Source of the DNA: Picochlorum sp. SENEW3
Lineage: Eukaryota
Reading direction: 5' to 3'
Assembly (NCBI GenBank): GCA_034226945.1
Contig: CP120459.1
Coordinates: 310,001-374,000, forward strand
Length of the DNA stretch: 64,000 nucleotides
Shown here: one piece after another, positions 2,836 through 58,844 of the stretch
Layout: each line of letters starts with the position of its first letter
Position numbering within the stretch: position 1 is the stretch's first letter
Notes under the pieces: generated by a model
Database searches by the model: none
What the model was told of the DNA's origin: nothing
The model's input: the letters and a program-made list of their open reading frames with translations, nothing else
Translations under genes and position numbers: made by a program

Positions 2836-3987
2836 TCACGTCGACACCTTGTGCTTCCAGATTTTGATCGTACAATCAGATGATGCCGCACTCGTTGCCA
2901 AGAGTGGGTTCACTTTGCTGGCATCCAAACCCAAGGTCACATCACAGTGACCTGTCCCTTTTGATTCTGCTGCCTTTCTACCACGTAATACCCCAAGGCA
3001 TGTCTTGTTATTCAGCTCCCAAATATATACATGATGATCTTCAGACCCTGACACCACGAATTTGTTACCATCGTCCGTCTTGACCATGAAGATGGACTTG
3101 AGTGCATACTTGACGTTCAAATGCCCCGAGTATGTCTTTTTCAACACCGGGCGAGCTTCCTGTCCTTGCGGCTTGTCCGCAATAAAGTCGAAAAGCAATG
3201 CCTTACTCTTCAACGTGCTTAACAAGACGTATTTATTGTTCGGAGTAAATTGAGCAGACACGACGGGTGTCTTGTCCTCATCCGGAACAATCGTCCTCAG
3301 GCATTCCTTTGTCTGACTTGACCATATTCGACTGCACGACAATCATGATGATCATAGACATACAGGATGTGTGACAAATATGGATTTGATCTTGAAACAA
3401 TATATGCGCATATACTCTTGAGAAGAAGAATCTACATACCATGAACCATCCAATGAGGATGTCGCCAAAAGTGGCTTCACCTGCTCCTTTGAATACACCA
3501 CGGACATGATTGGGTCGGAATGCGCAGAAATCACAGATATGACACCCCCAGTACGAATATCCCACAACCGAACAGTCTCATCAAAACTCCCCGTCGCTAG
3601 AACATTCCCAGAGGGAGCAAACGAGCACGATGTCACATGATGGGTATGCCCAGCAAGCTCCTGGACACACTTGCCACCCGATCGAGTATCCCATAATCGA
3701 GCCAGTTTATCATCAGACGTACTCGCAAGCGTCACACTATCCCAATTCCAATCTACATCCGTGATACTATAGTTGTGTTGTGCAAAACTATTCAAAATAG
3801 TGTGCTTCTCTACATCCCACACTTTCGCCGTAGAGTCCGCGCTTCCAGAAGCAACTTTCCTGCCATCTAAAGAAAATTTGACCGCAGGCACAGTATCAGT
3901 GTGTCCAGTGAGAGTTGCAGAAACAGAGAATCCGGGGGCATCTGGCAAATCTGTCCGATCCCTATACTCACTCAACGAATCCACCAT
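2836..3987 (-). CDS. WDR5: WDR5/SWD3-like WD40 protein (COMPASS subunit); one intron 3439-3332
   Basis: Splicing joins two ORFs into SSLDGSC|RIW; GSFDETVRLWD, AHSDPI, FTPNNKYVL, KTYSGHLNVKY and VSGSEDH match WDR5. Confidence 0.8.
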
Positions 3988-4463: not shown

Positions 4464-7400
4464 ATGGCCGCGCTCGTCGGTGATGATGATGGTGAGAAGA
4501 ATCAAGGAAATGTTCATGATGATGAGAGCATGTGTTGTACGACGAGAACAAACTTGAGCCGGCAGCATGATGAGTACTTTGATCATGTATTGTCACAAGG
4601 GAGGTTGGAGGAGGCCATGGAAGCGTTTGATATGGCCTTTTTCAGCCATTTCGATCGCGTTGTACGTGTTTTAATCATCACTATAAAAAGTAGAAGGGAA
4701 GGTATTGTTGCTAAAAAAAGTACCATCTTGGATGCAGGTTTCCATGTATCAGGAACAGCCACAGTTGCTGGATCCAATACTGGAGGGATTTGTTGGACGG
4801 CTCGCATCCATCATGATGGATCGTGTGTCGTCTATGAAGTATGATGCAGATGATATGCTCAAGGTGGTGTATGTGTCAAAGTTTCTTTGGAAGTTGGCAT
4901 CAGTGCGAGGGTACAAGACAATATTGAGGTTTATGCCATGTGAGGTGTACTGTGTGGAACCTGTGTTTCATTTGTCCCAGGTAGTGACGGGAGGTGCGTG
5001 GAAGTCATCAAAAGACAATTCATGTGAAGAAGTCGCAGATGTGTCGACGTGGGAGTGCGAGTATGTGTGTCTCATGTGGAGTTCTCAGCTGGCCTTGGTG
5101 CCATTCAAATTTGATATTATAGATTCAAGTATGAATGTGGGGCAGGCGTATGATATTGCTCCGTTGGCCCAAACGTTGATTGATGTATGCAAAGATCAAT
5201 TGAAGTCGGCGAGTGCGACGAGAAACATGGCGGCAGTATGTTTGGGTAGGTTGCTTACTCGGCCAGATATGACCAAGGCTTTGATGGATTTTGCGACGTG
5301 GTGCCGTGATGTGCTACACGACGTATCTGAGAATAGTAGTTCAGATGCAAGAGATAGATATAGAGTGTTGTCATTTTTATTGCCTGGGATTATCCTCACG
5401 TGGTCGACCTTGTTCAAGATTGGGAGAGTGCAGGATGAGGGAATACATGCTCTTGCAGCAGAGTTTATTCCGCACGGGATGCGTGTGTTTGAGTCTGAAG
5501 GTGCAAAATCAAATCCTCTTTTGCGTAAATTATGCATCAAGATGACTCAGAGGGCTGTGTTGCTGTGCGTCACGGACGGCAAGGATGCTTGGTTGGCTGA
5601 TGAGGGGACCAGGGATACTGTAGAGATGAGTATTGACGCATTGATCACGGCGTTGGATGACCAGGATACTATTGTGAGGTGGTCTGGTGCGAAAGGAGTG
5701 GGAAGAGTTTCATCCAAACTCCCGTCGTCCTTTGTGAATCAGGTGATTGATTGGATATTGGAGCAGATGCATTCTGTTCTTGCCACTGAGAATAGCTGGC
5801 ATGGGGGATGCTTGGCTCTCGCCGAGCTTACACGTAGGGACCTTATACCTCGCTCCAAAGTATCTGAGATAATTCCTGTGGTTGAGAAGGGGTTGGAATT
5901 TGAAATTCGGCGAGGTTACACGAGTGTGGGTGCAAATGTTCGAGATGCAGCTGCATATGTATGTTGGGCGCTTGCAAGAACCCAATCAAAGGAAGAGATG
6001 CGAGGAGCTGTCTTGAAACTAGCACCGATCCTTATGACAACAGCATGTTATGATCGAGAGGTGAATTGTAGGCGAGCAGCAGCAGCAGCCTTCCAAGAGT
6101 GTGTAGGGCGACTTGGAGAATTCCCCCATGGTATTGATATTCTGACTATTGCTGATTATTTCACCGTGAGCCTTCGAAAAGCGGTGCGTCACTTTCCACA
6201 GAAAACAAAAAATGACTTGTGTGATGCTGAAGAAGACATCTCACCTTGATACATGTCTTTGCAGGCTTACATTGATGTAGCACCACAAGTTGCAGCATTT
6301 CCTGGGTATCATGTACATTTCGCGAGACATCTTTTGGAGAAGAAATTGAGACATTGGGAAAAATCTATCCGAGAACTAGCTGCGCAAGCTCTCGCATCGC
6401 TTGTCCATATCGATGTGGACTATCACTGTATCGAGTCTGTCCCTCGCCTGATCCAATCATGCCCAAGCACTGTGTTGGATGAGAGGCATGGAGCTGTTGC
6501 TGCCCTGGCATGTGTCATCCCTCAAATATATCGAATAAAGAATCGCAAAGATTGGATAGATGTCCGTGAACAAAAGCAGCTCGCGGATATCATTCCAACA
6601 TTGGTCAATGCTGGCTTGACCAAGGGCGTAGGGGGAGAGACAATGAGAGGGGCATTATGCCGCTTGATTGCAAGCCTGTCACAAATGCAGATTCCAATGA
6701 ATGATGATCAGATAATCTGCTTGTACGATATGTGTCGTGAAAATCTAAGCCATCCATCAGAGGATATTCAGTTGGAAGCATCTGCTGCGCTCTCTTCATT
6801 CCTGGACAGACACATTCCACGAGATTGCCTCGATGAGGACCGCGTGCTTACTGATTTGATCCACAACCTTCGTCCAGATTTACATTTCGGAGCGCGACGA
6901 GGTTCGGCAATGGTGTTTGGCAAATTTCCTTCCCGACTCATCAAACAGTACCAGAACGACATCCTCAATGCCCTCATTCCAACAGTGCATCCTGAGGAGC
7001 AGATAGCTGTCCGGGACGTCGAGACTCGAGTAAACGCAATACAGTCTCTCCCTCATGTTCTGAGCGTGATGGATACCTCTGATGCACTAGCATGGCTGGG
7101 CAACGTATTCGATGCACTCCTTGCAGCCCTAGATGACTATTCAACTGACAATAGGGGTGATATTGGTAGCTGGTGTCGGGATGCCGCGGTACGTGCGGCT
7201 ACCCATATCTTTGAGAATCACCCACCAAAATATTATGATCCATCAACATTAGATAAAGCGAGGCACATAGCATACAAGACTGCCCGTGTATCCATTGAGC
7301 GAATCAGCAAGGTACGCCAGACAGCTGGCTCATGCTTGAAGCAAAGCGCAGAACGATATGCAGATGAGCTCCAACTACAATGCATATACGATACTATTAA

Positions 7401-8100
7401 ATCCACCAAAGATGCCGATTTTCAAGAAGGGAAGGCAGTAGCACAGGTTGTCCAAGCAATCAGCCCATCTCACTCACAGCTATCAAAAGAAATTGTCAGT
7501 GGCCTTGTGTACTCCATTGGTGGCCTTGACGCAGCGCTCCAAGAAATGACTGCATCATCACTCGTGAACTTTATCAATAATTGCGATGAAGAGACTGCGG
7601 TATACTGCGGGGAGATTATCCTAGACTTGTGGGAGACCAACCTGAAGAACACGAGACTATCTGTCCCAAGCATCCTCACAGTAGACCATCTACTCTCCAA
7701 TTCTCCCCTCATGTACCACGACGATATTATAGTGAGATCTGTGAGTCTAATACAGAACGCGACGCTAGGTACCGGAGACGTGGGCAAATTATGCAGTGCA
7801 GCAGCGCTCTTGGGCACCATTGTTGGCAATGATACTGGTGGTGGAACCACACCAGATGCACCAGCCATCCGCGTCCTCGTATCACTGATGGGCAAGAAGT
7901 ACCCAAAAGTGCGAAAGATGGCTGCTGAGCAACTCTATACAGCAATGCTTATGTGGGATGAGGAGACAGCCTCAGGATCTGGTATCCTGTTTGACAAAGC
8001 CCAGACCATTCTGATGGACACAGCATGGGATGGACCGGCAGCGGTGGTTAGACCAGCTCGGGAGCGCTTGGCTGCAAGCCTTGGCTTTTCACTTCAGTAA
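4464..8100 (+). CDS. TBCD: Tubulin-folding cofactor D; introns 4662-4737 and 6184-6264
   Basis: YQEQPQLLDP, VRGYK, DTIVRWSGAKGVGR, WHGGCLALAEL, VRDAAAYVCWA, DREVNCRRAAAAAFQE, DDYSTDNRGDIGSW; GT-AG introns restore frame. Confidence 0.93.
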
Positions 8101-8304
8101 GCAACTCAATCGTATCCCTTACTATTTTATGCAAGTGTAAATTGCATTGAAGTATAATATTGACGATACTTGAGAGTATGCATCGAGTACATTGTGTTTG
8201 AATTCGACACATCTTGCGATTTTAAGGAAGACTCTCTTCAGCTCTTGGAGAATGGATCTACTGGTGTGAAATGAAAAGATAAATACTTTGGAAGAGAAGC
8301 TAAG

Positions 8305-11300
8305 ATGAGCAAGACAAAAGAGAGTCAGACAGTTGGCCAAAATCTTGGAAGAACAGAGCTGCCCTCTTTTTTCTTGTTGGATGTTGTTCTCATTCCCGAT
8401 GATGAGGAGTATATCTCAAAATACAAGGAATATATTTATGGGGATGGTTCCAGTGAGAAAGATACAAGTGAAGACAACTCTGCTGGGCCCAGTGGCAGTT
8501 CCAGGCCAGGCCAGTTTGGCTTTGGACAGCAGTCTCCTTTAAAACAGGAGGCGACTCCTTCTCGACCTACGGCTGATCATGCCAGTGGTTCCAACAGAGG
8601 TGGTCCGAATCAAGATAAATCTGCTGGGTCTAGTAGCAGTTCCAGACCAGGCCAGTTTGGCTTTGGTCAACAGTTTGCTTTAAGGCAGGAGGCGACTCCT
8701 TCTCGACCTACGGCTGAGAATGCCACTAATTCTAGTGAGGGCCGTCCAAAACAAGACAACTCTGCTGGGCCCAGTAGCAGTTCCAGACCAGGCCAGTTTG
8801 GCTTTGGACAGCAGTCTCCTTTAAAACAGGAGGCGACTCCTCCTCAACCTACGGGTGGTAGCACGAGTCTTTCTTCGCGAGCAGCACGTAGAAAGATGAG
8901 GGTGTGTAGAAATCGATGGGAAAAAGCAAGTAATGGAGGTGACTCTATGCATCCTCAGCTTGGTAGAACAAGTCAAAACGGTGTACCATGGAGAAAAACC
9001 ACGGTGCGTGAAGAGTATGATCATGGTGCGATATGGTATGTTCAATTAGATTCCATCTCGGCTAGGAAAGAATATGCGTCAAAGTGCGTAGAGGAGTTGC
9101 GCTGGGAACATTCCCAGAATACTGTTACAAAGGATTTGGCGGTAATAGAATCATACTCCTGTTTGGAGAAACCGACTCCTTTTCTCATGGCAGTGCTTCA
9201 GGGGAGATTGGCGTTGTGTAAAGTTTTCAGCCATTCTCAGTGGTTATGGGAAAGACGTTGGCCCATGTATCGTACTGATGTCAAAGCTTGCTCACAAATC
9301 ATGATGGGTGTTTTTGTGGCATGTATTCATGGACGAGTGGATATGTTTGAGTGTCTTCTGAAAGCGCTTTTAGAGGGAGGAATAGTGTCTAGTGCTACTG
9401 CATTATCGAGAATTATGCAGTCTAGGGATGAAAATGGAAGAACACCTTGCATTCTTGCATCAATGCATGGACATAACGATGTGTTACAAAGCTTCATCGC
9501 CTTACTCAAAACTCCAACTGTATCCGCTGGGTCTCTGTTCCCGTGGACTGCTCATGTGAATGCGCAAGACAGATTAGGCAAAACAGCACTCATGTATGCA
9601 TGCGAGTCTGGAAATCTTCAGATTGCGAAGACCCTTATCAAACAAGGTGTGAATCTTGATATGCAGGATAAGCATGACTTATCTGCACTTGAATATGCCA
9701 TGAGTAGGGATCACAAGGAAATTATATTGGCCCTGATCAACGCTGGTGCTGATCTGTTTATTAATGGAAAACAGATTTTGATAGGCGCTGCAGAGAAGGG
9801 GGATCTAGAGATGCTCCAGACGTTGATCAAGTTGAATTTCGATTTGAACAGAAAGTGTATTGCGGGACGGACAGCGGTCATGTTTGCCGTACATGAGGAC
9901 CAAGAGGAGGCAGTGCAAACTCTGCTGAAAGCTGGGGCAGATGCAGCTGTGCGCGATGAGAATGATGATACAATACTGACGCTCGCTGCAGAGCATGCAT
10001 CGGCTCGTATGGTTAATGTGTGCTTGGAATATATACCTGCTGAAATGATAGACTTCTGTACACTTCATGAGAGGTGGACAGCATTGATGCTTGCATCCAA
10101 GAGAGGAGATGAAAATATTGTCAAAGCCCTCTTGAAGGCCGGTGCATCCGTCCTGCATAAGCGAGATATTCATATGATGTCGACTATTGATCTCGTGAGC
10201 AATGGCGATCTTGAGAATAAAACCGCCATACTTGAACTCCTCAGGGAAAGAGAGGCAGCAGAGAGACTTGTAGAGCAAATGTCAATACAACAGATTAGTG
10301 AATGCGACCAAGGTGATTCAATCGCATATGACGATCTCAACATTGAGACAGACAGATCTATTGGACGTGGTTCCTTTAGTGTTGTGAAAATGGCAACCTG
10401 GAGAGGCATGGATGTGGCAGTCAAAGAGTTGACATCAAATCTGTCCTTGGACACACAAGACATATTGCGCTCAGAGGTGCAGACATTGTCGTCTCTGCGA
10501 CATCCTTCTATTGTATCATACTATGGTTATTGCGAGGATCCTCCGTGTATTGTTATGGAGCTATGCGCCGACTCACTGAGCAATCTGCTGCACCAATGTG
10601 CGCAAGGGGGTGACAGCAACTCAGATATTGGTCAGACAATGACATGGAAATGCCGCTTGCAGATTGCTACAGACACCGCTGAAGGAATGACGTATTTACA
10701 TAAGGCTAAAAACTATTATCATCGTGATCTTAGAACCGCAAATATTCTCATCACCAGTAGATACCAGGCCAAGATCTCAGACATGGGATTGACAAAGAAA
10801 GCACTCAAAGTAAGCAGAAACTCTGCTGGAACTATTGCAGCATCAACACCGAGGTGGCTGGCACCAGAAATTTTGTCAAATGGCCCATTCACGTCCAAAT
10901 CCGACGTGTACAGCTTTGGCACTGTGCTGTATGAACTTGCAACGTGGAAACAGCCATGGGCTGGCATTGAAGAGTACGGAATCCCTCATCTTATTCTTGT
11001 GAAGAAAGAGCGCCTCACAATTCCAGACTTGGAAAGTATACCTGGACCACAACCAACTGAAGGAGAAACATTCATCAAATTTAGGGAGATTGCAGATAGA
11101 TGTCTCGCAGTTGACCCATCTGACAGACCAGAGTTTGAAGAGATTGTCTCAGAGCTAAAGCAGATACTCAAACGCGAGCAAACGCCAGAAGATCAGCAGA
11201 TGTCTTCTTGCATTGTATGTCTCTCCAAGTCATCTGAATGTGCATACATCAATTGTGGACATTGCTGTGTGTGTGAGGATTGTGCACAAATTGACCCCTG

Positions 11301-11361
11301 CAGTGCTCAGTGCCCAATCTGTAGAAAAGCAGGGCGCCCAACAAAAATTTTCTTCTCGTAG
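8305..11361 (+). CDS. Multidomain protein: FG repeats, GLEBS-like motif, ankyrin repeats, TKL (Raf-like) kinase, C-terminal RING
   Basis: RPGQFGFGQQ x3; SISARKEYASKCVEELRWE; G-x-TALM ankyrin motifs; GRGSFSVV/VAVK/HRDLRTAN/DMG/RWLAPE/SDVYSFG; CIVC...CGHCCVCEDC...CPICR. Confidence 0.85.
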   Translation: MSKTKESQTVGQNLGRTELPSFFLLDVVLIPDDEEYISKYKEYIYGDGSSEKDTSEDNSAGPSGSSRPGQFGFGQQSPLKQEATPSRPTADHASGSNRGGPNQDKSAGSSSSSRPGQFGFGQQFALRQEATPSRPTAENATNSSEGRPKQDNSAGPSSSSRPGQFGFGQQSPLKQEATPPQPTGGSTSLSSRAARRKMRVCRNRWEKASNGGDSMHPQLGRTSQNGVPWRKTTVREEYDHGAIWYVQLDSISARKEYASKCVEELRWEHSQNTVTKDLAVIESYSCLEKPTPFLMAVLQGRLALCKVFSHSQWLWERRWPMYRTDVKACSQIMMGVFVACIHGRVDMFECLLKALLEGGIVSSATALSRIMQSRDENGRTPCILASMHGHNDVLQSFIALLKTPTVSAGSLFPWTAHVNAQDRLGKTALMYACESGNLQIAKTLIKQGVNLDMQDKHDLSALEYAMSRDHKEIILALINAGADLFINGKQILIGAAEKGDLEMLQTLIKLNFDLNRKCIAGRTAVMFAVHEDQEEAVQTLLKAGADAAVRDENDDTILTLAAEHASARMVNVCLEYIPAEMIDFCTLHERWTALMLASKRGDENIVKALLKAGASVLHKRDIHMMSTIDLVSNGDLENKTAILELLREREAAERLVEQMSIQQISECDQGDSIAYDDLNIETDRSIGRGSFSVVKMATWRGMDVAVKELTSNLSLDTQDILRSEVQTLSSLRHPSIVSYYGYCEDPPCIVMELCADSLSNLLHQCAQGGDSNSDIGQTMTWKCRLQIATDTAEGMTYLHKAKNYYHRDLRTANILITSRYQAKISDMGLTKKALKVSRNSAGTIAASTPRWLAPEILSNGPFTSKSDVYSFGTVLYELATWKQPWAGIEEYGIPHLILVKKERLTIPDLESIPGPQPTEGETFIKFREIADRCLAVDPSDRPEFEEIVSELKQILKREQTPEDQQMSSCIVCLSKSSECAYINCGHCCVCEDCAQIDPCSAQCPICRKAGRPTKIFFS
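8473..8853 (+). repeat. Three imperfect ~140-bp intragenic direct repeats encoding SAGPSSSSRPGQFGFGQQSPLKQEATPSRPT
   Basis: tctgctggg..ccaggccagtttggctttgg..caggaggcgactcct recurs near 8479, 8620 and 8761. Confidence 0.9.
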
Positions 11362-11750
11362 CACTCATACCGACGATGCATTGACATGATCACAAGCAAA
11401 TACGTGTAAGACATTTTTGGTCCAACCCTCGGGATGCATCGATCCACCTGGATCAGGCCCACGCCAATTAGAAGACACAAGCCAGGCCGATTATCTGAGA
11501 GAGCTTTTGCAGCATGCATTGTCTTTTCTCGGCGACAGCATGGTTCTAAACGTGACCCTCTAATGAGTAGACATATTCAACCGATGCAACAAGTACGTGT
11601 GCGTCACTACAACTGCAGTAGCCTTTGCAGCCGCGTCCTCCAGCAGGAGAACTCTCTCAAGTTTGGGTCCATCTCCTCTCTCATGACCGCTTACTAAAGT
11701 GTCCGGTCTTCCGCGGCGACGCTTTGTACGTGTATACTTCCCATGTGACT

Positions 11751-11790
11751 ATTCTAGAAGCCTTCTGGATGCTTCCAGAACCTTCCACAA
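11751..11790 (+). promoter_or_regulatory. Heat-shock element array (nGAAn/nTTCn)
   Basis: aTTCtaGAAg followed by cTTCt-gGATg-cTTCc-aGAAc-cTTCc at exact 5-bp period, ~50 bp upstream of a TATA box. Confidence 0.75.
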
Positions 11791-11834
11791 CGTGACACAT
11801 CAGCATCGTGTCGGAAACGCGGTTGGCGGATTGC

Positions 11835-11976: not shown

Positions 11977-14397
11977 ATGCAAGGAAACAACGGAAACGGA
12001 GCAAACCTGCACGGCATGTCATGTCGCGGAAGTTGTCACGACATGGACCAAGCCTCACTTGCATACCACCATACTCTTGCTATGCACTTGATGCATTCCA
12101 TGGGTACTATTTATGGGGCACATTCTCCAGCTGGGGGTTCAGGTAGCAGGGGATGCCACTCTGGATTAGATGCTGCACATGCTGCCCATGGAGCTGATAT
12201 TCATGCTGCCCATGGAATCAATGTCTCGGGAGGGCAAGGATGCCACTCTGGTATGGATGCTGCCCATGGAGGTGATATTCATGCTGCTCATGGAATCAAT
12301 GTCTCGGGTGGATGCCACTCTGGTATGGATGCTGCCCATAAAGGTGATATTCATGCTGCTCATGGAATCAATGTCTCTGGAGGACATGGATGCCACTCTG
12401 GTATGGATGCTGCCCATGGAGGTGATATTCATGCTGCTCATGGAATCAATGTCTCGGGTGGATGCCACTCTGGTATGGATGCTGCCCATGGAGGTGATAT
12501 TCATGCTGCTCATGGAGTAAATGTCTCGGGTGGATGCCACTCTGGTATGGATGCTGCCCATAAAGGTGATATTCATGCTGCTCATGGAATCAATGTCTCT
12601 GGAGGACATGGATGCCACTCTGGTATGGATGCTGCCCATGGAGGTGATATTCATGCTGCTCATGGAATCAATGTCTCGGGTGGATGCCACTCTGGTATGG
12701 ATGCTGCTCATGGAGGTGATATTCATGCTGCTCATGGAGTAAATGTGTCTGGAGGACAGGGATGTCACTCTGGTATGGCTGCTGCCCATGGAGGTGATAT
12801 TCATGCTGCTCATGGAATCAATGTCTCTGGAGGACATGGATGCCACTCTGGTATGGATGCTGCCCATGGAGGTGATATTCATGCTGCTCATGGAATCAAT
12901 GTCTCGGGTGGATGCCACTCTGGTATGGATGCTGCCCATAAAGGTGATATTCATGCTGCTCATGGAATCAATGTCTCTGGAGGACATGGATGCCACTCTG
13001 GTATGGATGCTGCCCATAAAGGTGATATTCATGCTGCTCATGGAATCAATGTCTCTGGAGGACATGGATGCCACTCTGGTATGGATGCTGCCCATGGAGG
13101 TGATATTCATGCTGCTCATGGAATCAATGTCTCGGGTGGATGCCACTCTGGTATGGATGCTGCCCATAAAGGTGATATTCATGCTGCTCATGGAATCAAT
13201 GTCTCTGGAGGACATGGATGCCACTCTGGTATGGATGCTGCTCATGGAGGTGATATTCATGCTGCTCATGGAGTAAATGTGTCTGGAGGACAGGGATGTC
13301 ACTCTGGTATGGCTGCTGCCCATGGAGGTGATATTCATGCTGCTCATGGAATCAATGTCTCTGGAGGACATGGATGCCACTCTGGTATGGATGCTGCCCA
13401 TGGAGGTGATATTCATGCTGCTCATGGAATCAATGTCTCGGGTGGATGCCACTCTGGTATGGATGCTGCCCATAAAGGTGATATTCATGCTGCTCATGGA
13501 ATCAATGTCTCTGGAGGACATGGATGCCACTCTGGTATGGATGCTGCCCATAAAGGTGATATTCATGCTGCTCATGGAATCAATGTCTCTGGAGGACATG
13601 GATGCCACTCTGGTATGGATGCTGCTCATGGAGGTGATATTCATGCTGCTCATGGAGTAAATGTGTCTGGAGGACAGGGATGTCACTCTGGTATGGCTGC
13701 TGCCCATGGAGGTGATATTCATGCTGCTCATGGAATCAATGTCTCGGGTGGATGCCACTCTGGTATGGATGCTGCCCATAAAGGTGATATTCATGCTGCT
13801 CATGGAGTAAATGTGTCTGGAGGACAGGGATGTCACTCTGGTATGGATGCTGCTCATGGAGGTGATATTCATGCTGCTCATGGAGTAAATGTCTCGGGAG
13901 GACAAGAATGCCACTCTGGGCTGGATGCTGCCCATGGAGCTGATATTCATGCTGCTCATGGAGTAAATGTGTCTGGAGGACAGGGATGTCACTCTGGTAT
14001 GGCTGCTGCCCATGGAGGTGATATTCATGGTGCTCATGGAGTAAATGTGTCTGGAGGACAGGGATGTCACTCTGGTATGGATGCTGCTCATGGAGGCGAT
14101 ATCCATGCTTTTCATGGAGTAAATGTCTCGGGAGGACAGGGATGCCACTCTGGTATGGATGCTGCTCATGGAGCTGATATTCATGCTGCTCATGGAGTAA
14201 ATGTCTCTGGAGGACAGGGATGCCACTCTGGATTGGATGCTGTGCATGCTGCCCATGGAGCTGATATTCATGCTGCCCATGGAATCAATGTCTCAGCAGA
14301 CCAGATATGCCAGGTGGATACAGATCAAGATGGAGAAGATGAGGATGCCCCAGCAGACGCAGGTGTTGATGGAGAGGATGGAAAAGATTGCCAATAA
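11977..14397 (+). CDS. His/Gly/Ala-rich tandem-repeat protein (28 x 24/26 aa) with acidic tail; function unknown
   Basis: 806-aa ORF with unique N- and C-termini, TATA and HSE upstream, TGTAA at ~14528 downstream; repeat length variants are all multiples of 3. Confidence 0.8.
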   Translation: MQGNNGNGANLHGMSCRGSCHDMDQASLAYHHTLAMHLMHSMGTIYGAHSPAGGSGSRGCHSGLDAAHAAHGADIHAAHGINVSGGQGCHSGMDAAHGGDIHAAHGINVSGGCHSGMDAAHKGDIHAAHGINVSGGHGCHSGMDAAHGGDIHAAHGINVSGGCHSGMDAAHGGDIHAAHGVNVSGGCHSGMDAAHKGDIHAAHGINVSGGHGCHSGMDAAHGGDIHAAHGINVSGGCHSGMDAAHGGDIHAAHGVNVSGGQGCHSGMAAAHGGDIHAAHGINVSGGHGCHSGMDAAHGGDIHAAHGINVSGGCHSGMDAAHKGDIHAAHGINVSGGHGCHSGMDAAHKGDIHAAHGINVSGGHGCHSGMDAAHGGDIHAAHGINVSGGCHSGMDAAHKGDIHAAHGINVSGGHGCHSGMDAAHGGDIHAAHGVNVSGGQGCHSGMAAAHGGDIHAAHGINVSGGHGCHSGMDAAHGGDIHAAHGINVSGGCHSGMDAAHKGDIHAAHGINVSGGHGCHSGMDAAHKGDIHAAHGINVSGGHGCHSGMDAAHGGDIHAAHGVNVSGGQGCHSGMAAAHGGDIHAAHGINVSGGCHSGMDAAHKGDIHAAHGVNVSGGQGCHSGMDAAHGGDIHAAHGVNVSGGQECHSGLDAAHGADIHAAHGVNVSGGQGCHSGMAAAHGGDIHGAHGVNVSGGQGCHSGMDAAHGGDIHAFHGVNVSGGQGCHSGMDAAHGADIHAAHGVNVSGGQGCHSGLDAVHAAHGADIHAAHGINVSADQICQVDTDQDGEDEDAPADAGVDGEDGKDCQ
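12154..14295 (+). repeat. Coding minisatellite, 28 units of mostly 72/78 bp, with higher-order blocks
   Basis: Unit tgccactctggtatggatgctgcccatggaggtgatattcatgctgctcatggaatcaatgtctc(g/t)gg...; 28 CHSG motifs counted. Confidence 0.97.
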
Positions 14398-25791: not shown

Positions 25792-26649
25792 ATGGGTTTC
25801 GAAAACTGGTTCCCAATGATTTGCGTGAATTCGTGTCAGCATATGCTGCTCGACGCATTTCAACGATGGTTACGACCTGACTGTGATTCTTCGGAGGAAT
25901 ATCAACGACGGCGGAGGTCTATGAAGGGCATTATCATGTTATTGTTGAAGACCGCTGCCACGGGTGCATTAGCGACTGTGTTGGATGCGTTGATCGAGAT
26001 TCGACGTCGACACATGTATCTTGTATCATTACGAGAAGAGATTGGGGCAGATGCGATGGGTGGGGAGGAGGCTGGGGTGGTATCATCGCCATCTGGGTAT
26101 TTGGGCATTGGAAATCTCACTCGGGCTGGAATATCTGCGTGGAGATCTAGGCTCTTGATCGGTATAGACGAGTTGGAAAAGCAAGCGCTGCGATATGGGA
26201 TTCAGCCGAGTCATAGATTCTCACCGAATGAGAGCTTGGAGGATGTCGTGACAGAGAAGAAGAGAGATTCTGAGGGAAAGGATGATGCTGATGAAGTGCC
26301 ATGTGGTGCACACACGAAACAAATATCGACAACAGTCAAGCAGCTTATCCATCTCGTGGAGGCACAAGATCAGACAAGGCTTGAATCAGAGGTGGATACG
26401 TTAGTGGATGGACTGTTGGGTACAAGGGAGGATGCTGCAGAGTGTTGTACTATATGCATGGATGATGATGTTGCCACCCAGGTGGAGATAGCTGGGTGTC
26501 GACACGAACTCTGTTTTTCTTGTGCTCGGATGATTTGCGACGGAACGAATGCCCATCAGCTGCCTCAGTGTCCATTTTGTAGGCACCCCATAGAAGGGTT
26601 CAAACCCATTTATCATAGAGTAACGACGTCTTCTGTAGCGTGCGATTGA
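25792..26649 (+). CDS. C3HC4 RING-finger protein (putative E3 ligase)
   Basis: CTICMD...GCRHELCFSC...CPFCR at the C-terminus; true 5' end uncertain. Confidence 0.75.
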   Translation: MGFENWFPMICVNSCQHMLLDAFQRWLRPDCDSSEEYQRRRRSMKGIIMLLLKTAATGALATVLDALIEIRRRHMYLVSLREEIGADAMGGEEAGVVSSPSGYLGIGNLTRAGISAWRSRLLIGIDELEKQALRYGIQPSHRFSPNESLEDVVTEKKRDSEGKDDADEVPCGAHTKQISTTVKQLIHLVEAQDQTRLESEVDTLVDGLLGTREDAAECCTICMDDDVATQVEIAGCRHELCFSCARMICDGTNAHQLPQCPFCRHPIEGFKPIYHRVTTSSVACD

Positions 26650-28578: not shown

Positions 28579-30264
28579 ATGGCCAAGGAGGATCCGAGAA
28601 GCAGCATGCATGCTGCTGCGGATGATACGACCTGTGGACCCACTGAATTAGCTCACGGAGAAGGAAAAAACGATGAACAGGCTGTCAAAAAGGACAGGTT
28701 GGTGAAAGCATTGGATTCTATGATATACATGCCTCATATTAAGGAGATAGGGAAGGATATGGCGGTGCCTGGGCTGATGGTGATGGGTGGGGGACTGAGA
28801 CACAATGCAGTGGGTGATGTTGCCCAACCCGGAGGAGGTGGGGGACATGATGGGAGTCGGAAGCGGGTAGGAAGGCCTTGGGATAGAGGTGAATTGTACA
28901 GTAGATTGCAGACGTTCAAGTCGTTGACGTGGTTTGCAAAGCCACCAAAGATTAATGCACAAGAGTGCGCTCGGCGGGGGTGGGAGAATACTGGAATGGA
29001 TGAACTGACGTGTGAGACGTGTCGGTCGGTGATCAAGTTTCCAGTGAGTTTTCAGGATGATAGTTTTGATGTAGAGCCTGATCAGATGAGGAATGTGGTG
29101 GATTCGTTTGAAAAGAAGTTGACAGAGGCACATGAGACATTGTGTCCGTGGAGGTCCTCTGTGTGCTCCTTGTCCTTGTTTGAATTTCCCAGGCATCTTC
29201 CACAGGCTACTATTGCTGCTGATTTTAAGAGTAGATGTACAGTGTTGAGGAGGTTGCTGTGTCTTCCGCCAATGGCGGAGAGTGGGATGGCACAGTTGGT
29301 GGAGACGGCATCCAAGACTGTTGGCATGTTGAGAGATTTACACGTTGTTTTGAAGAAGGGGGATGCGTGTGCAGCGACGCCAAGGAAAGATTGGGAGGAC
29401 AAGCCGGAGTTCTCCGAGGACGTGTTTCGGACCCAGATGATGAAGATGTTGAGGACACATGTGGTGTCAAATTTTGAGCGTGAGGTGTTCTTGGCACGGG
29501 TGCACCTCATGGCCTTGTGCGGGTGGAGTTTGCGAATATTGAAAGGCGCGAGCACAGGTGATACTGACTTGCAGGACTTACCCCCGTTGCTGCCAGAGCA
29601 TACGGCTCTTCAGTGTACAGTGTGTGGTGCTCGAGTTGGGATGTGGTCCATGTTTGAAGGATGTGCTGCAAAGGCCTTTTCCAAGGCGGCGCTAGCTGAA
29701 AAACGTGCTCCATTGTATCAGAATGATAAAATTTCTTTTAGTATGAACCATCAGGTGGCGATGAATATGACGACCACGATTGCAGGAGGGATGTTACAGC
29801 CAAGTGTGCTTGGTATGGCAGGTGAATCTTCTGGTCCATTTGGAAAATCATCACCAGGAGCTTTCGAGTATGCAACGCCTCCAGCGAAACAGAAAACGTC
29901 CAAGAAACGGTCTTTAGAAGAAGGTACTGACAATACCAAGGCGAAAAAGCAGCACACACAGAGAAAACCATTGTCATCATCCAGTGCACTGTCTCAGTAT
30001 AGGGCAGCGTGCAATGCTGATTTCGACCCTGTTGAGTCCCATCGTCCGTTTTGCCCATGGGTGCACGCGACATCAGTGAATTCTAGTGATAGTCTATGCG
30101 GATGGCAGATCTATCTTGAGAACCTCGTCTCCACCTCTGGAGATGTGTCTGTTGCATCAGCCCTGGCCCACCAGGACGATCACGAAGCAGGCCAGAAGGA
30201 TGCATGGCGTGGAAAGGACGTGTTCCAGAAGGTGCTATCTTCCATCACGCGGAAGAAATCATAA
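28579..30264 (+). CDS. NIPA/Rsm1/Pml39-like zf-C3HC protein
   Basis: RPWDRGELYSRLQTF...WFAKP...CARRGW...CETC...H...CPW; MALCGW; CTVCGARVGMW; FDPVESHRPFCPW. Confidence 0.88.
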   Translation: MAKEDPRSSMHAAADDTTCGPTELAHGEGKNDEQAVKKDRLVKALDSMIYMPHIKEIGKDMAVPGLMVMGGGLRHNAVGDVAQPGGGGGHDGSRKRVGRPWDRGELYSRLQTFKSLTWFAKPPKINAQECARRGWENTGMDELTCETCRSVIKFPVSFQDDSFDVEPDQMRNVVDSFEKKLTEAHETLCPWRSSVCSLSLFEFPRHLPQATIAADFKSRCTVLRRLLCLPPMAESGMAQLVETASKTVGMLRDLHVVLKKGDACAATPRKDWEDKPEFSEDVFRTQMMKMLRTHVVSNFEREVFLARVHLMALCGWSLRILKGASTGDTDLQDLPPLLPEHTALQCTVCGARVGMWSMFEGCAAKAFSKAALAEKRAPLYQNDKISFSMNHQVAMNMTTTIAGGMLQPSVLGMAGESSGPFGKSSPGAFEYATPPAKQKTSKKRSLEEGTDNTKAKKQHTQRKPLSSSSALSQYRAACNADFDPVESHRPFCPWVHATSVNSSDSLCGWQIYLENLVSTSGDVSVASALAHQDDHEAGQKDAWRGKDVFQKVLSSITRKKS

Positions 30265-57479: not shown

Positions 57480-58844
57480 CTACGCTTCTGTCTTGATACG
57501 TTTGTTGCTCAATGAAGCATTGTTCTCTTCCAACCCTTTGAGGTAGTCCACAAGCTTGGTCACCTTGTCCTTCAAGGCATAGTCCATGGCTGTGTTACCC
57601 TCTCCATCTCTCACATCAACACGCGCCTTGGCAGACTCGACCAAATACTTGACAACATCATATTTCCAATAGAAAGCAGCCTGTAACAATGCAGTGCGCC
57701 CATGGCTCTCTCTGGCTTCCACATCAGCATGGCATTCTTCCACCAAAAAGGCAACGATGTCACGTTTACCATGCCCAGCAGCCATCAGGAGTGCATTAAA
57801 TCCTTCACAATTCGTCGCATTCAAATCAGCTTTACCCTTCTTCACTAGTACTTTGACGACATCAAGATGATTGTATGCAATCGCGAGTGCAAGCACGGTG
57901 TTCCCATCGAATTTGACATTCACATTAATCTTGCCCAAGCTCACCAGGTACTCGACAATAGCAACATGACCATGCCTGCAGGCAATAGAGAGAGGACTGT
58001 CCGAATTGTATACGTCTCTACACCTCACACTAGCACCCGCTCTTTTCACCAAATACGTGACAATGTTGAGTCGTCCAAACCGGCATGCCAACATCAGTGG
58101 CGTCCAGTAATCACCATCCTTGACCTGTGCTACATTTATACCCTCCTTCACCCCTTCTCTGAAGATGGGAGCCACCAAATGCGCATGTCCAAATTCACAC
58201 GCGTAATGCAGCAAGCATCGATCGTCTTGGTCCTGATACGACATGGGAATACCCGTCTTGTTCATCATCCTTGCCAGAATAGGATACACTGCCCCAACCT
58301 GGCATGCATATATTTGAGTCAGCTCAGGACATGAGAACGCCTGCTCGAGATCTTCAGCGGTACATTTGCCTTTATTGAACACAGCCAAGGCCTGCGACCC
58401 ATTCTTTATCGTCTCGTACACATGAGAGGGGATGTATCTTAATGCACGGTACTCTGCCATCTTTTCAAACTCCTCCTTGCTCAACTCCTCATCATAATCG
58501 ATGCACATCTCATCCAACTCCATTTGCCAATCCTCAGTATCTAGATTGACATACATCTTTCTGTGATAGCGGAAATCCACAGCCTTGTCCTTCTGAAGAT
58601 GCACTCCACACCTCACAGCAAGGTACCGTCTGGCAATATGCTCCTTGAGTTCTTCCTGGGGCAGCATCCCAATAGCATATAAACTCAACAATGCTCTCAT
58701 ATGATATATATTGTATGGATTGTAATAACGTGAGACGATTTTCTGACGAATAGTGGGGTTTCCAAGCACCTGTGCTGCCAGACTGGTTGGGTTTGGAACT
58801 GCCTTTGTTGTTGTATCAGATTCATTCCCAATGATCTGAGCCAT
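57480..58844 (-). CDS. Ankyrin-repeat protein
   Basis: ~7 repeats (TPLMLACRFG, SPLSIACRHGH, GRTALLQAA, GNTAMDYA). Confidence 0.9.
   Translation of the reverse strand: MAQIIGNESDTTTKAVPNPTSLAAQVLGNPTIRQKIVSRYYNPYNIYHMRALLSLYAIGMLPQEELKEHIARRYLAVRCGVHLQKDKAVDFRYHRKMYVNLDTEDWQMELDEMCIDYDEELSKEEFEKMAEYRALRYIPSHVYETIKNGSQALAVFNKGKCTAEDLEQAFSCPELTQIYACQVGAVYPILARMMNKTGIPMSYQDQDDRCLLHYACEFGHAHLVAPIFREGVKEGINVAQVKDGDYWTPLMLACRFGRLNIVTYLVKRAGASVRCRDVYNSDSPLSIACRHGHVAIVEYLVSLGKINVNVKFDGNTVLALAIAYNHLDVVKVLVKKGKADLNATNCEGFNALLMAAGHGKRDIVAFLVEECHADVEARESHGRTALLQAAFYWKYDVVKYLVESAKARVDVRDGEGNTAMDYALKDKVTKLVDYLKGLEENNASLSNKRIKTEA

Follow-up and report, generated by a model that had tools for sequence, protein, structure and literature searches.

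A probable Rae1-docking module of Nup98 type on a predicted ankyrin-kinase-RING protein of Picochlorum-like algae

A 64,000-nucleotide stretch of the Picochlorum sp. SENEW3 genome (contig CP120459.1, positions 310,001 to 374,000 of the forward strand; hereafter the window, whose own numbering is used throughout) carries a gene that probably arose when a combined protein kinase and RING-type E3 ubiquitin ligase took a Rae1-docking module from NUP98, giving an enzyme restricted, as far as its sequence relatives indicate, to Picochlorum-like algae. The gene is a single stop-free open reading frame (ORF) on the plus strand (8305-11361; 1018 amino acids plus stop codon), with orthologues in the sequences designated P0002, L001 and P0005. 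From N- to C-terminus its translation contains a short conserved N-terminal motif, phenylalanine-glycine (FG) repeats, a basic patch, a Nup98-type GLEBS, ankyrin repeats, a kinase domain and a RING. The GLEBS occupies residues 226-272 (8980..9120, plus strand, as are all parts of the ORF) and reads GVPWRK...EELRWEHSQN, with its core, SISARKEYASKCVEELRWEH, at residues 250-269 (9052-9111). A first-pass annotation, made from the letters of the window, had described three FG repeats, a basic patch and a Nup98-type GLEBS at these positions, followed by ankyrin repeats, a kinase with its catalytic lysine and HRD intact (DMG replacing DFG) and a RING; every one of these parts was found, and the GLEBS shares one uninterrupted, conserved reading frame with the rest.

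Several comparisons indicate that the GLEBS is genuine. By BLASTP the window protein matches the Nup98 P0146 at 28 of 55 residues (E 7e-11). Its closest database match, a 1065-residue hypothetical protein of Picochlorum sp. BPE23 that is 90-94% identical to it (P0002), matches the same Nup98 over 47 ungapped residues with 27 identities (57%; E 5e-12), and neither protein has any likeness to P0146 outside the GLEBS in these BLASTP comparisons. The match spans both strands of the hairpin. When a 57-residue segment was compared with the PDB, the best four of five matches were Nup98 GLEBS chains from Rae1 complexes (3mmy_B, 7byf_B, 4owr_B and 7vpg_B), each weak singly (E about 0.4); residues 1-332 as a whole gave no PDB match at E<=10 with phmmer. 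A profile (A2) built from the GLEBS segment and following linker of three family members, run with HMMER against 1.84 billion representative sequences, recovered 75 proteins at E<=1e-3. Setting aside the family members P0002 and P0004, 72 of the other 73 contain the Pfam family Nup98_GLEBS (PF21240), 71 of them reaching its cut-off; this leaves P0121, a fragment of the kinase family itself (26.3 bits), and P0167, an ankyrin protein matched via the linker. Eight of the matches are bona fide Nup98 proteins with the S59 autopeptidase domain. When the GLEBS region of P0002 was the query of a word-index search, six candidates and three matches emerged, all of the matches family members, a result that is uninformative on the distribution of the motif.

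The finer details of the motif point to its source. The signatures VPWRKT and SKSVEELRWE are chlorophyte-specific and are common to this GLEBS and to Nup98 proteins of the Picochlorum type, while land-plant Nup98s differ at both places (...Y..T... and KSHEELR); on this showing, the earlier suggestion that a nucleoporin fragment has been captured looks right. Residues E263 and E264 (in VEELR) align with LEELR of 3mmy_B and are equivalent to E201 and E202 of Nup98. According to one report (PMC3783196), these glutamates hold Rae1 by two conserved salt bridges, and yeast Gle2 in which the partner arginines carry the opposite charge no longer binds Nup116. Both glutamates are kept in the window copy. 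Taken together, these sequence likenesses show that the GLEBS is a true homologue of the Nup98 type and no chance match.

This assignment bears on an alternative choice of partner. The motif might instead bind Bub3, a paralogue of Rae1, making the protein a checkpoint or mitotic kinase similar to Bub1; the attraction of the idea is that Bub1 and BubR1 kinases use a GLEBS-type motif for Bub3, and the window protein likewise pairs a kinase with a GLEBS. It is nevertheless very improbable: the 47-residue match is of Nup98 type and nearest to Nup98 of the kind that the alga itself has, the kinase is Raf/CTR1-like and not Bub1-like, and hmmscan against all of Pfam at E<=1 detected no Mad3/Bub1 family in the protein.

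The first-pass annotation had also recommended a search for a separate, intact NUP98, and evidence of one was seen in two places. The sequence cluster of a second chlorophyte-type Nup98, P0163, holds a Picochlorum soloecismus entry named as a nucleoporin autopeptidase family protein. In addition, two public sequencing runs from close relatives (X1 and X3) contain a second locus, represented by contigs that match the window solely over the GLEBS core (9069-9112) and are unlike it on both sides; read by hand in frame, their flanks (...FNSISCMP and YQDGNKGG...) correspond to the Nup98 version of the motif, as in P0146. Relatives thus have a distinct Nup98 that carries a GLEBS of its own, and the GLEBS of the kinase gene is therefore an extra copy and not the organism's sole one.

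At the DNA level, these 44 bases of the GLEBS core are at least 85% alike between the kinase gene and the NUP98 of relatives, which could be due either to a codon constraint common to both genes or to gene conversion from one to the other.

Full-length relatives of the protein were seen in Picochlorum-like algae alone, apart from the distant P0222. The relatives include, besides P0002, a EukProt Picochlorum model (P0003) that wrongly continues into the downstream gene, two metagenomic relatives (P0004, 68% identical, and P0005, 60-63% identical), and a 932-residue orthologue, 65% identical, on a 13-kb metagenome contig (L001) that was the lone locus to emerge from a scan of metagenome contigs; P0121 is a fragment from the same lineage as L001. 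The L001 protein has the same succession of parts from N-terminal motif to RING, GLEBS included, with a single FG motif and an acidic run between that motif and the basic patch. Between the window and L001, 602 of 921 aligned codons specify the same amino acid across the whole gene, with a ratio of nonsynonymous to synonymous substitution rates (dN/dS) of 0.26; the kinase is identical at 210 of 272 positions (dN/dS 0.20) and the ankyrin region at 187 of 292 (dN/dS 0.25). The GLEBS (residues 225-272) retains 25 of 48 identities with dN/dS 0.24 and its core (246-270) 16 of 25 with dN/dS 0.31, values that for the motif rest on small numbers with dS near saturation. Immediately before it, residues 205-224 have 6 identities in 18, and the FG region (49-186) is mostly unalignable; in the linker that follows (273-345), 50 of 73 positions agree. 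The GLEBS-bearing architecture, as read from these translations, is thus common to two diverged lineages, a third being without GLEBS, and the substitution pattern indicates that the motif is under purifying selection, like the folded domains.

Could the GLEBS be made as part of the enzyme? Contigs from four public runs, aligned to 7900-11800, contain no splice joint in any of the four. One contig of X3, a run whose type was guessed, bridges 8786-9647 and so runs from the last FG copy through basic patch and GLEBS into the first ankyrin repeats; a second covers 9649-11417. Two RNA-labelled runs (X7 and X8) contributed short pieces at 8264-8415, at 9079-9231 and at many places further 3'. X1 and X3 are possibly DNA. 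Uncovered parts and the stop in coverage near 11420-11460 prove nothing. Co-translation of the GLEBS with the enzyme is supported instead by the open frame, its conservation and the dN/dS values.

A number of observations weigh against a functional, captured docking module, and they should be set out together. No single contig spans the gene, and the RNA-library pieces may themselves derive from DNA. The GLEBS-profile search that the first-pass annotation had called for gave a divided answer: two orthologues pass (P0002 at 28.6 bits and P0003 at 29.7), and the window copy, at 17.0 bits (E 0.0065), falls short of the cut-off of 27, as do P0004 (19.8) and L001 (19.6). P0005 has no PF21240 match at all, its ORF being continuous and without GLEBS while retaining the N-terminal motif and two FVFG motifs, so the module is dispensable in at least one relative. 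The window copy has two changes at highly conserved positions, M254R (AGG, 9064-9066) and S261C (TGC, 9085-9087): among 167 GLEBS instances taken from the A2 matches by means of the anchor Y-x5-EE, a few of which may be false, 142 have Met and 2 have Arg at the first position, and 145 have Ser and 7 Cys at the second. All kinase-family copies also have EH for the usual ED after EELR(W/L), Asp occupying this place in 137 of the 167.

These observations raise the possibility that the N-terminal tail is a chance acquisition and now a decaying remnant, functionally neutral or in the course of being lost, with the enzyme working via its ankyrin repeats alone. The existence of a lineage without GLEBS, the two private substitutions, the unstable FG copy number and, weakly, given a shallow alignment, AlphaFold2 confidence (pLDDT, predicted local distance difference test) below 50 for residues 1-290 could all be accommodated by such a history. 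It is nonetheless rather unlikely. The motif has survived in both of two lineages that have come to differ at 35% of their residues, and the disordered sequence beside it has meanwhile diverged beyond alignment; its dN/dS is low; both salt-bridge glutamates and 16 of the 25 core residues are kept; and the altered Met and Ser are retained in sister strains. Met254 is present in P0002, P0003, P0004, P0121 and L001, database orthologues carry both Met and Ser, and X1, X3 and X7 all have A for T at 9085, which restores Ser261. The failure of the window copy to reach the Pfam cut-off is attributable to its private changes. M254R may weaken the motif, and the window allele as a whole may bind Rae1 more weakly than its sister alleles.

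Beyond the docking motif, the protein has the domains of a predicted kinase and E3 ligase. The ankyrin-repeat solenoid, recognized through Pfam Ank families, covers approximately residues 291-660 (9175..10284) and includes a conserved N-terminal cap (SYSCLEKPTPFLMAVLQGRL...). It is followed by a tyrosine kinase-like (TKL), Raf-like protein kinase domain at residues 680-951 (10342..11157; PF07714, 178.7 bits) with recognizable motifs: a G-loop IGRGSFSVV, VAVK (K707), HRDLRTAN (806-813), DMG (826-828) and PRWLAPE. The catalytic residues K707, D808 and D826 are present and are invariant in orthologues; DMG replaces DFG invariantly across four close family members, and P0222 has DLG. The top PDB match of the kinase is Arabidopsis CTR1 (3ppz, E 5.6e-41). 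The C-terminal RING, of zf-C3HC4_3 type (residues 969-1007, 11209..11325; PF13920, 27.9 bits with a cut-off of 27), ends 11 residues from the C-terminus. All eight of its zinc ligands are readable (C969, C972, C984, H986, C990, C993, C1003 and C1006), and seven of them (C969, C972, H986, C990, C993, C1003 and C1006) are invariant in the orthologue alignment A3.

Two further features of the kinase can be recorded. HRDLRTAN and PRWLAPE (residues 806-855, 10720-10869) resemble signatures of the tyrosine-kinase type, the usual catalytic loop of a Ser/Thr kinase being HRDLK, and to judge by these motifs the enzyme may have dual specificity for Ser/Thr and Tyr. Outside the family, the top match of the kinase-RING half is a Marseillevirus kinase (E 1.1e-62, 31% identical), and an Insectomime virus kinase appears 22nd in the same list (E 5.5e-49); these giant-virus matches, P0214 and P0227, rank level with plant kinases and are therefore probably not meaningful.

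The capture model proposed here would run as follows. A pre-existing chassis of ankyrin repeats, Raf/CTR1-like kinase and C-terminal RING E3 would have gained at its N-terminus the FG-repeat and GLEBS portion, that is the 5' part, of the alga's own type of NUP98, in whose product GFGQQ repeats directly precede the GLEBS. The order of events, capture onto an existing chassis, is suggested by P0222, a distant ankyrin-kinase-RING protein (36% identical over the kinase-RING part) with neither FG repeats nor GLEBS. The GLEBS hairpin would dock on the beta-propeller of Rae1/Gle2 through the conserved EE salt bridges, and the FG repeats and basic patch could help the protein to bind transport receptors or to enter the nucleus. 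In this way kinase and RING would be brought to Rae1-containing assemblies, such as pore filaments, messenger ribonucleoproteins (mRNPs) in export, or perhaps the spindle, where they might modify Rae1 or proteins next to it, or compete with Nup98 for Rae1.

The sequence ahead of the GLEBS is less uniform. Three GQFGFGQQ repeats (residues 69-76, 116-123 and 163-170) lie in a 141-nucleotide tandem array of 2.7 copies with 84% matches (8471..8854), the copy number of which varies: P0002 and P0003 have more copies, L001 has one FG motif and P0005 two FVFG. The basic patch, RAARRKMRVCRNRWEK (residues 192-207, 8878..8925), is a candidate nuclear localisation signal, and L001 has a basic run, RTRRNSRYRMKKK, at the equivalent position. 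Nearer the N-terminus, residues 22-48 form a conserved motif, FFLLDVVLIPDDEEYISKYKEYIYGDG (8368..8448), found also in L001 and P0005; its pattern, DVVLIPxDE(E/D)YISxYxxYI(Y)G, persists in each of the three lineages, even in that without GLEBS. Residues 20-48 are identical at 18 of 28 positions in L001 and 18 of 29 in P0005, with dN/dS 0.21. The N-terminal motif has no Pfam match by hmmscan against all of Pfam. The idea that it might be a relative of the GLEBS (EYISK... beside EYVSK...) was rejected, the likeness being non-significant (18.9 bits, E 1.7). In an AlphaFold2 model of the whole protein from a five-sequence alignment, mean pLDDT was 46.5 and the ankyrin part alone lay at 60-90; the kinase fell below 50, which is due to the shallow alignment and not to disorder.

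Beyond this family, the A2 matches suggest that GLEBS fusions may be more widespread. RING domains occur at or above cut-off in 9 of the 73 (P0127, P0135, P0136, P0139, P0143, P0172, P0185, P0189 and P0192), and other partners of PF21240 are the Deltex C-terminal domain (P0135 and P0175), a TRAF zinc finger (P0141), PARP (P0155) and leucine-rich repeats (LRR; P0182). Outside nucleoporins the motifs are often in tandem, up to eight per protein (among P0122-P0193), and all of these non-nucleoporin carriers are annotated as uncharacterised. Full-text searches, whose matches co-mention words and were judged mostly by title or abstract, found no published GLEBS-RING protein, GLEBS-ankyrin-kinase protein or Picochlorum GLEBS; GLEBS motifs outside Nup98-family nucleoporins and Bub1/BubR1 appear to be essentially undescribed. 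One speculative generalization, on balance unlikely, is that the GLEBS is a portable Rae1-docking cassette, repeatedly joined to ubiquitin ligases and immune-type enzymes across eukaryotes; the recurrence of GLEBS-RING proteins in plants and crustaceans does suggest some general, unnamed principle. If the generalization were true, Rae1 or Rae1-bound mRNPs would be a hub of regulated ubiquitination and phosphorylation, or a guarded viral target, with the Picochlorum protein serving as dedicated regulator or guard of mRNA export. Picochlorum is fast-growing and genetically tractable, with a compact genome, and a kinase/E3 hard-wired to a Rae1-docking motif would give a handle on how an export factor is regulated by phosphorylation and ubiquitination.

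The company that the motif keeps elsewhere also bears on a defensive role as an integrated decoy, which the first-pass annotation had raised. In the form considered here, the FG/GLEBS segment, loaded with Rae1, would mimic a Rae1-Nup98 complex under viral attack, and binding of an effector would turn on an immune output through the kinase and RING. The domains that accompany the GLEBS in other eukaryotes (RING, the C-terminal part of Deltex, PARP, the TRAF zinc finger, LRR) are typical of innate-immune signalling, the FG array differs in copy number among close strains, and animal viruses are known to target Rae1-Nup98. Such a decoy or guard is nonetheless a long shot here, as no Picochlorum virus or effector is tied to the gene and the motif's dN/dS of 0.24 gives no sign of an arms race. 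A scan of viral contigs with A2 was empty, but its patterns came from the ankyrin cap and not from the GLEBS, so it offers no evidence on viral GLEBS motifs.

The genomic surroundings are those of ordinary eukaryotic genes, among them tubulin cofactor D, proteasome subunits, PRMT5 and NMD3. Two neighbouring ORFs were considered as candidates for Rae1 and set aside: 976-2448 is a WD40 protein whose best matches are designed WD40 proteins and Denticleless, and 3352-3987 resembles WDR5, on its Pfam matches only. The tubulin cofactor D gene (4705-8100, plus strand) consists of two ORFs in the same frame parted by one stop, which sits in a 78-nucleotide stretch (6187-6264) starting GTGCGT and ending TTGCAG, most likely a short in-frame intron by these features. 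The next gene on the other side (11977-14397, plus strand) encodes an 806-residue His/Gly/Ala-rich protein built on a 78-nucleotide unit repeated 27.6 times (12179-14294), without a Pfam family, which from its composition may be metal-binding. Further away are a NuBaID/zf-C3HC protein, of the family of a nuclear-basket protein (28579-30264, plus strand), a small protein with an XB3/XBAT31-type RING (25792-26649, plus strand) and a separate ankyrin-repeat protein (57480-58844, minus strand).

Among known systems the closest is the GLEBS of Nup98, Nup116 and Nup145N themselves (PF21240; Rae1-Nup98, PDB 3MMY). The window protein has the same hairpin-length motif (47 ungapped residues), the core I-S-x-(M)-x-x-Y-x-x-K-x-x-EELR-W-E with both salt-bridge glutamates, and, as in the Nup98 N-terminus, FG repeats of the FGQQ type ahead of it. 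Unlike Nup98, it continues after the motif into ankyrin repeats, kinase and RING, has EH(S/Y)Q for EDYQ, together with R254 and C261 in this strain, and has no Nup96 part; nor is the autopeptidase PF04096, present in P0146, P0164 and other Nup98 matches, among the 12 families listed for it by hmmscan at E<=1. Bub1 and BubR1 (Mad3) provide an analogy, in that a kinase would be tethered to a WD40 propeller of the Rae1 family by a GLEBS-type peptide; they differ in the type of GLEBS, in the kinase, which here is Raf/CTR1-like, and in their TPR domain, which the window protein is without.

For the enzyme half, the nearest parallels are plant KEG, a single polypeptide that likewise unites ankyrin repeats with a kinase and a RING, and the XBAT/XB3 ankyrin-RING ligases. 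KEG is built in the order RING, kinase, ankyrin repeats and HERC2-like repeats. The Picochlorum order is ankyrin repeats, kinase and RING, a difference from KEG that the first-pass annotation had also drawn; the N-terminus is nucleoporin-like, and no HERC2-type family was found in the protein by hmmscan against all of Pfam at E<=1. A precedent for an E3 bound to Rae1 comes from the RING-type PHR/Highwire/RPM-1 (MYCBP2) ligases, which bind Rae1 outside the pore (PMC4806438), but these are unrelated giant animal proteins. Nearer in construction are the GLEBS-RING proteins of Macleaya (P0127), Castilleja (P0139 and P0124), Palaemon (P0136) and Macrobrachium (P0192), which have one to five PF21240 motifs and a RING and are annotated merely as hypothetical or uncharacterised. 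They differ from the Picochlorum protein in having neither kinase nor ankyrin repeats, and these plant and crustacean fusions arose independently of the Picochlorum gene.

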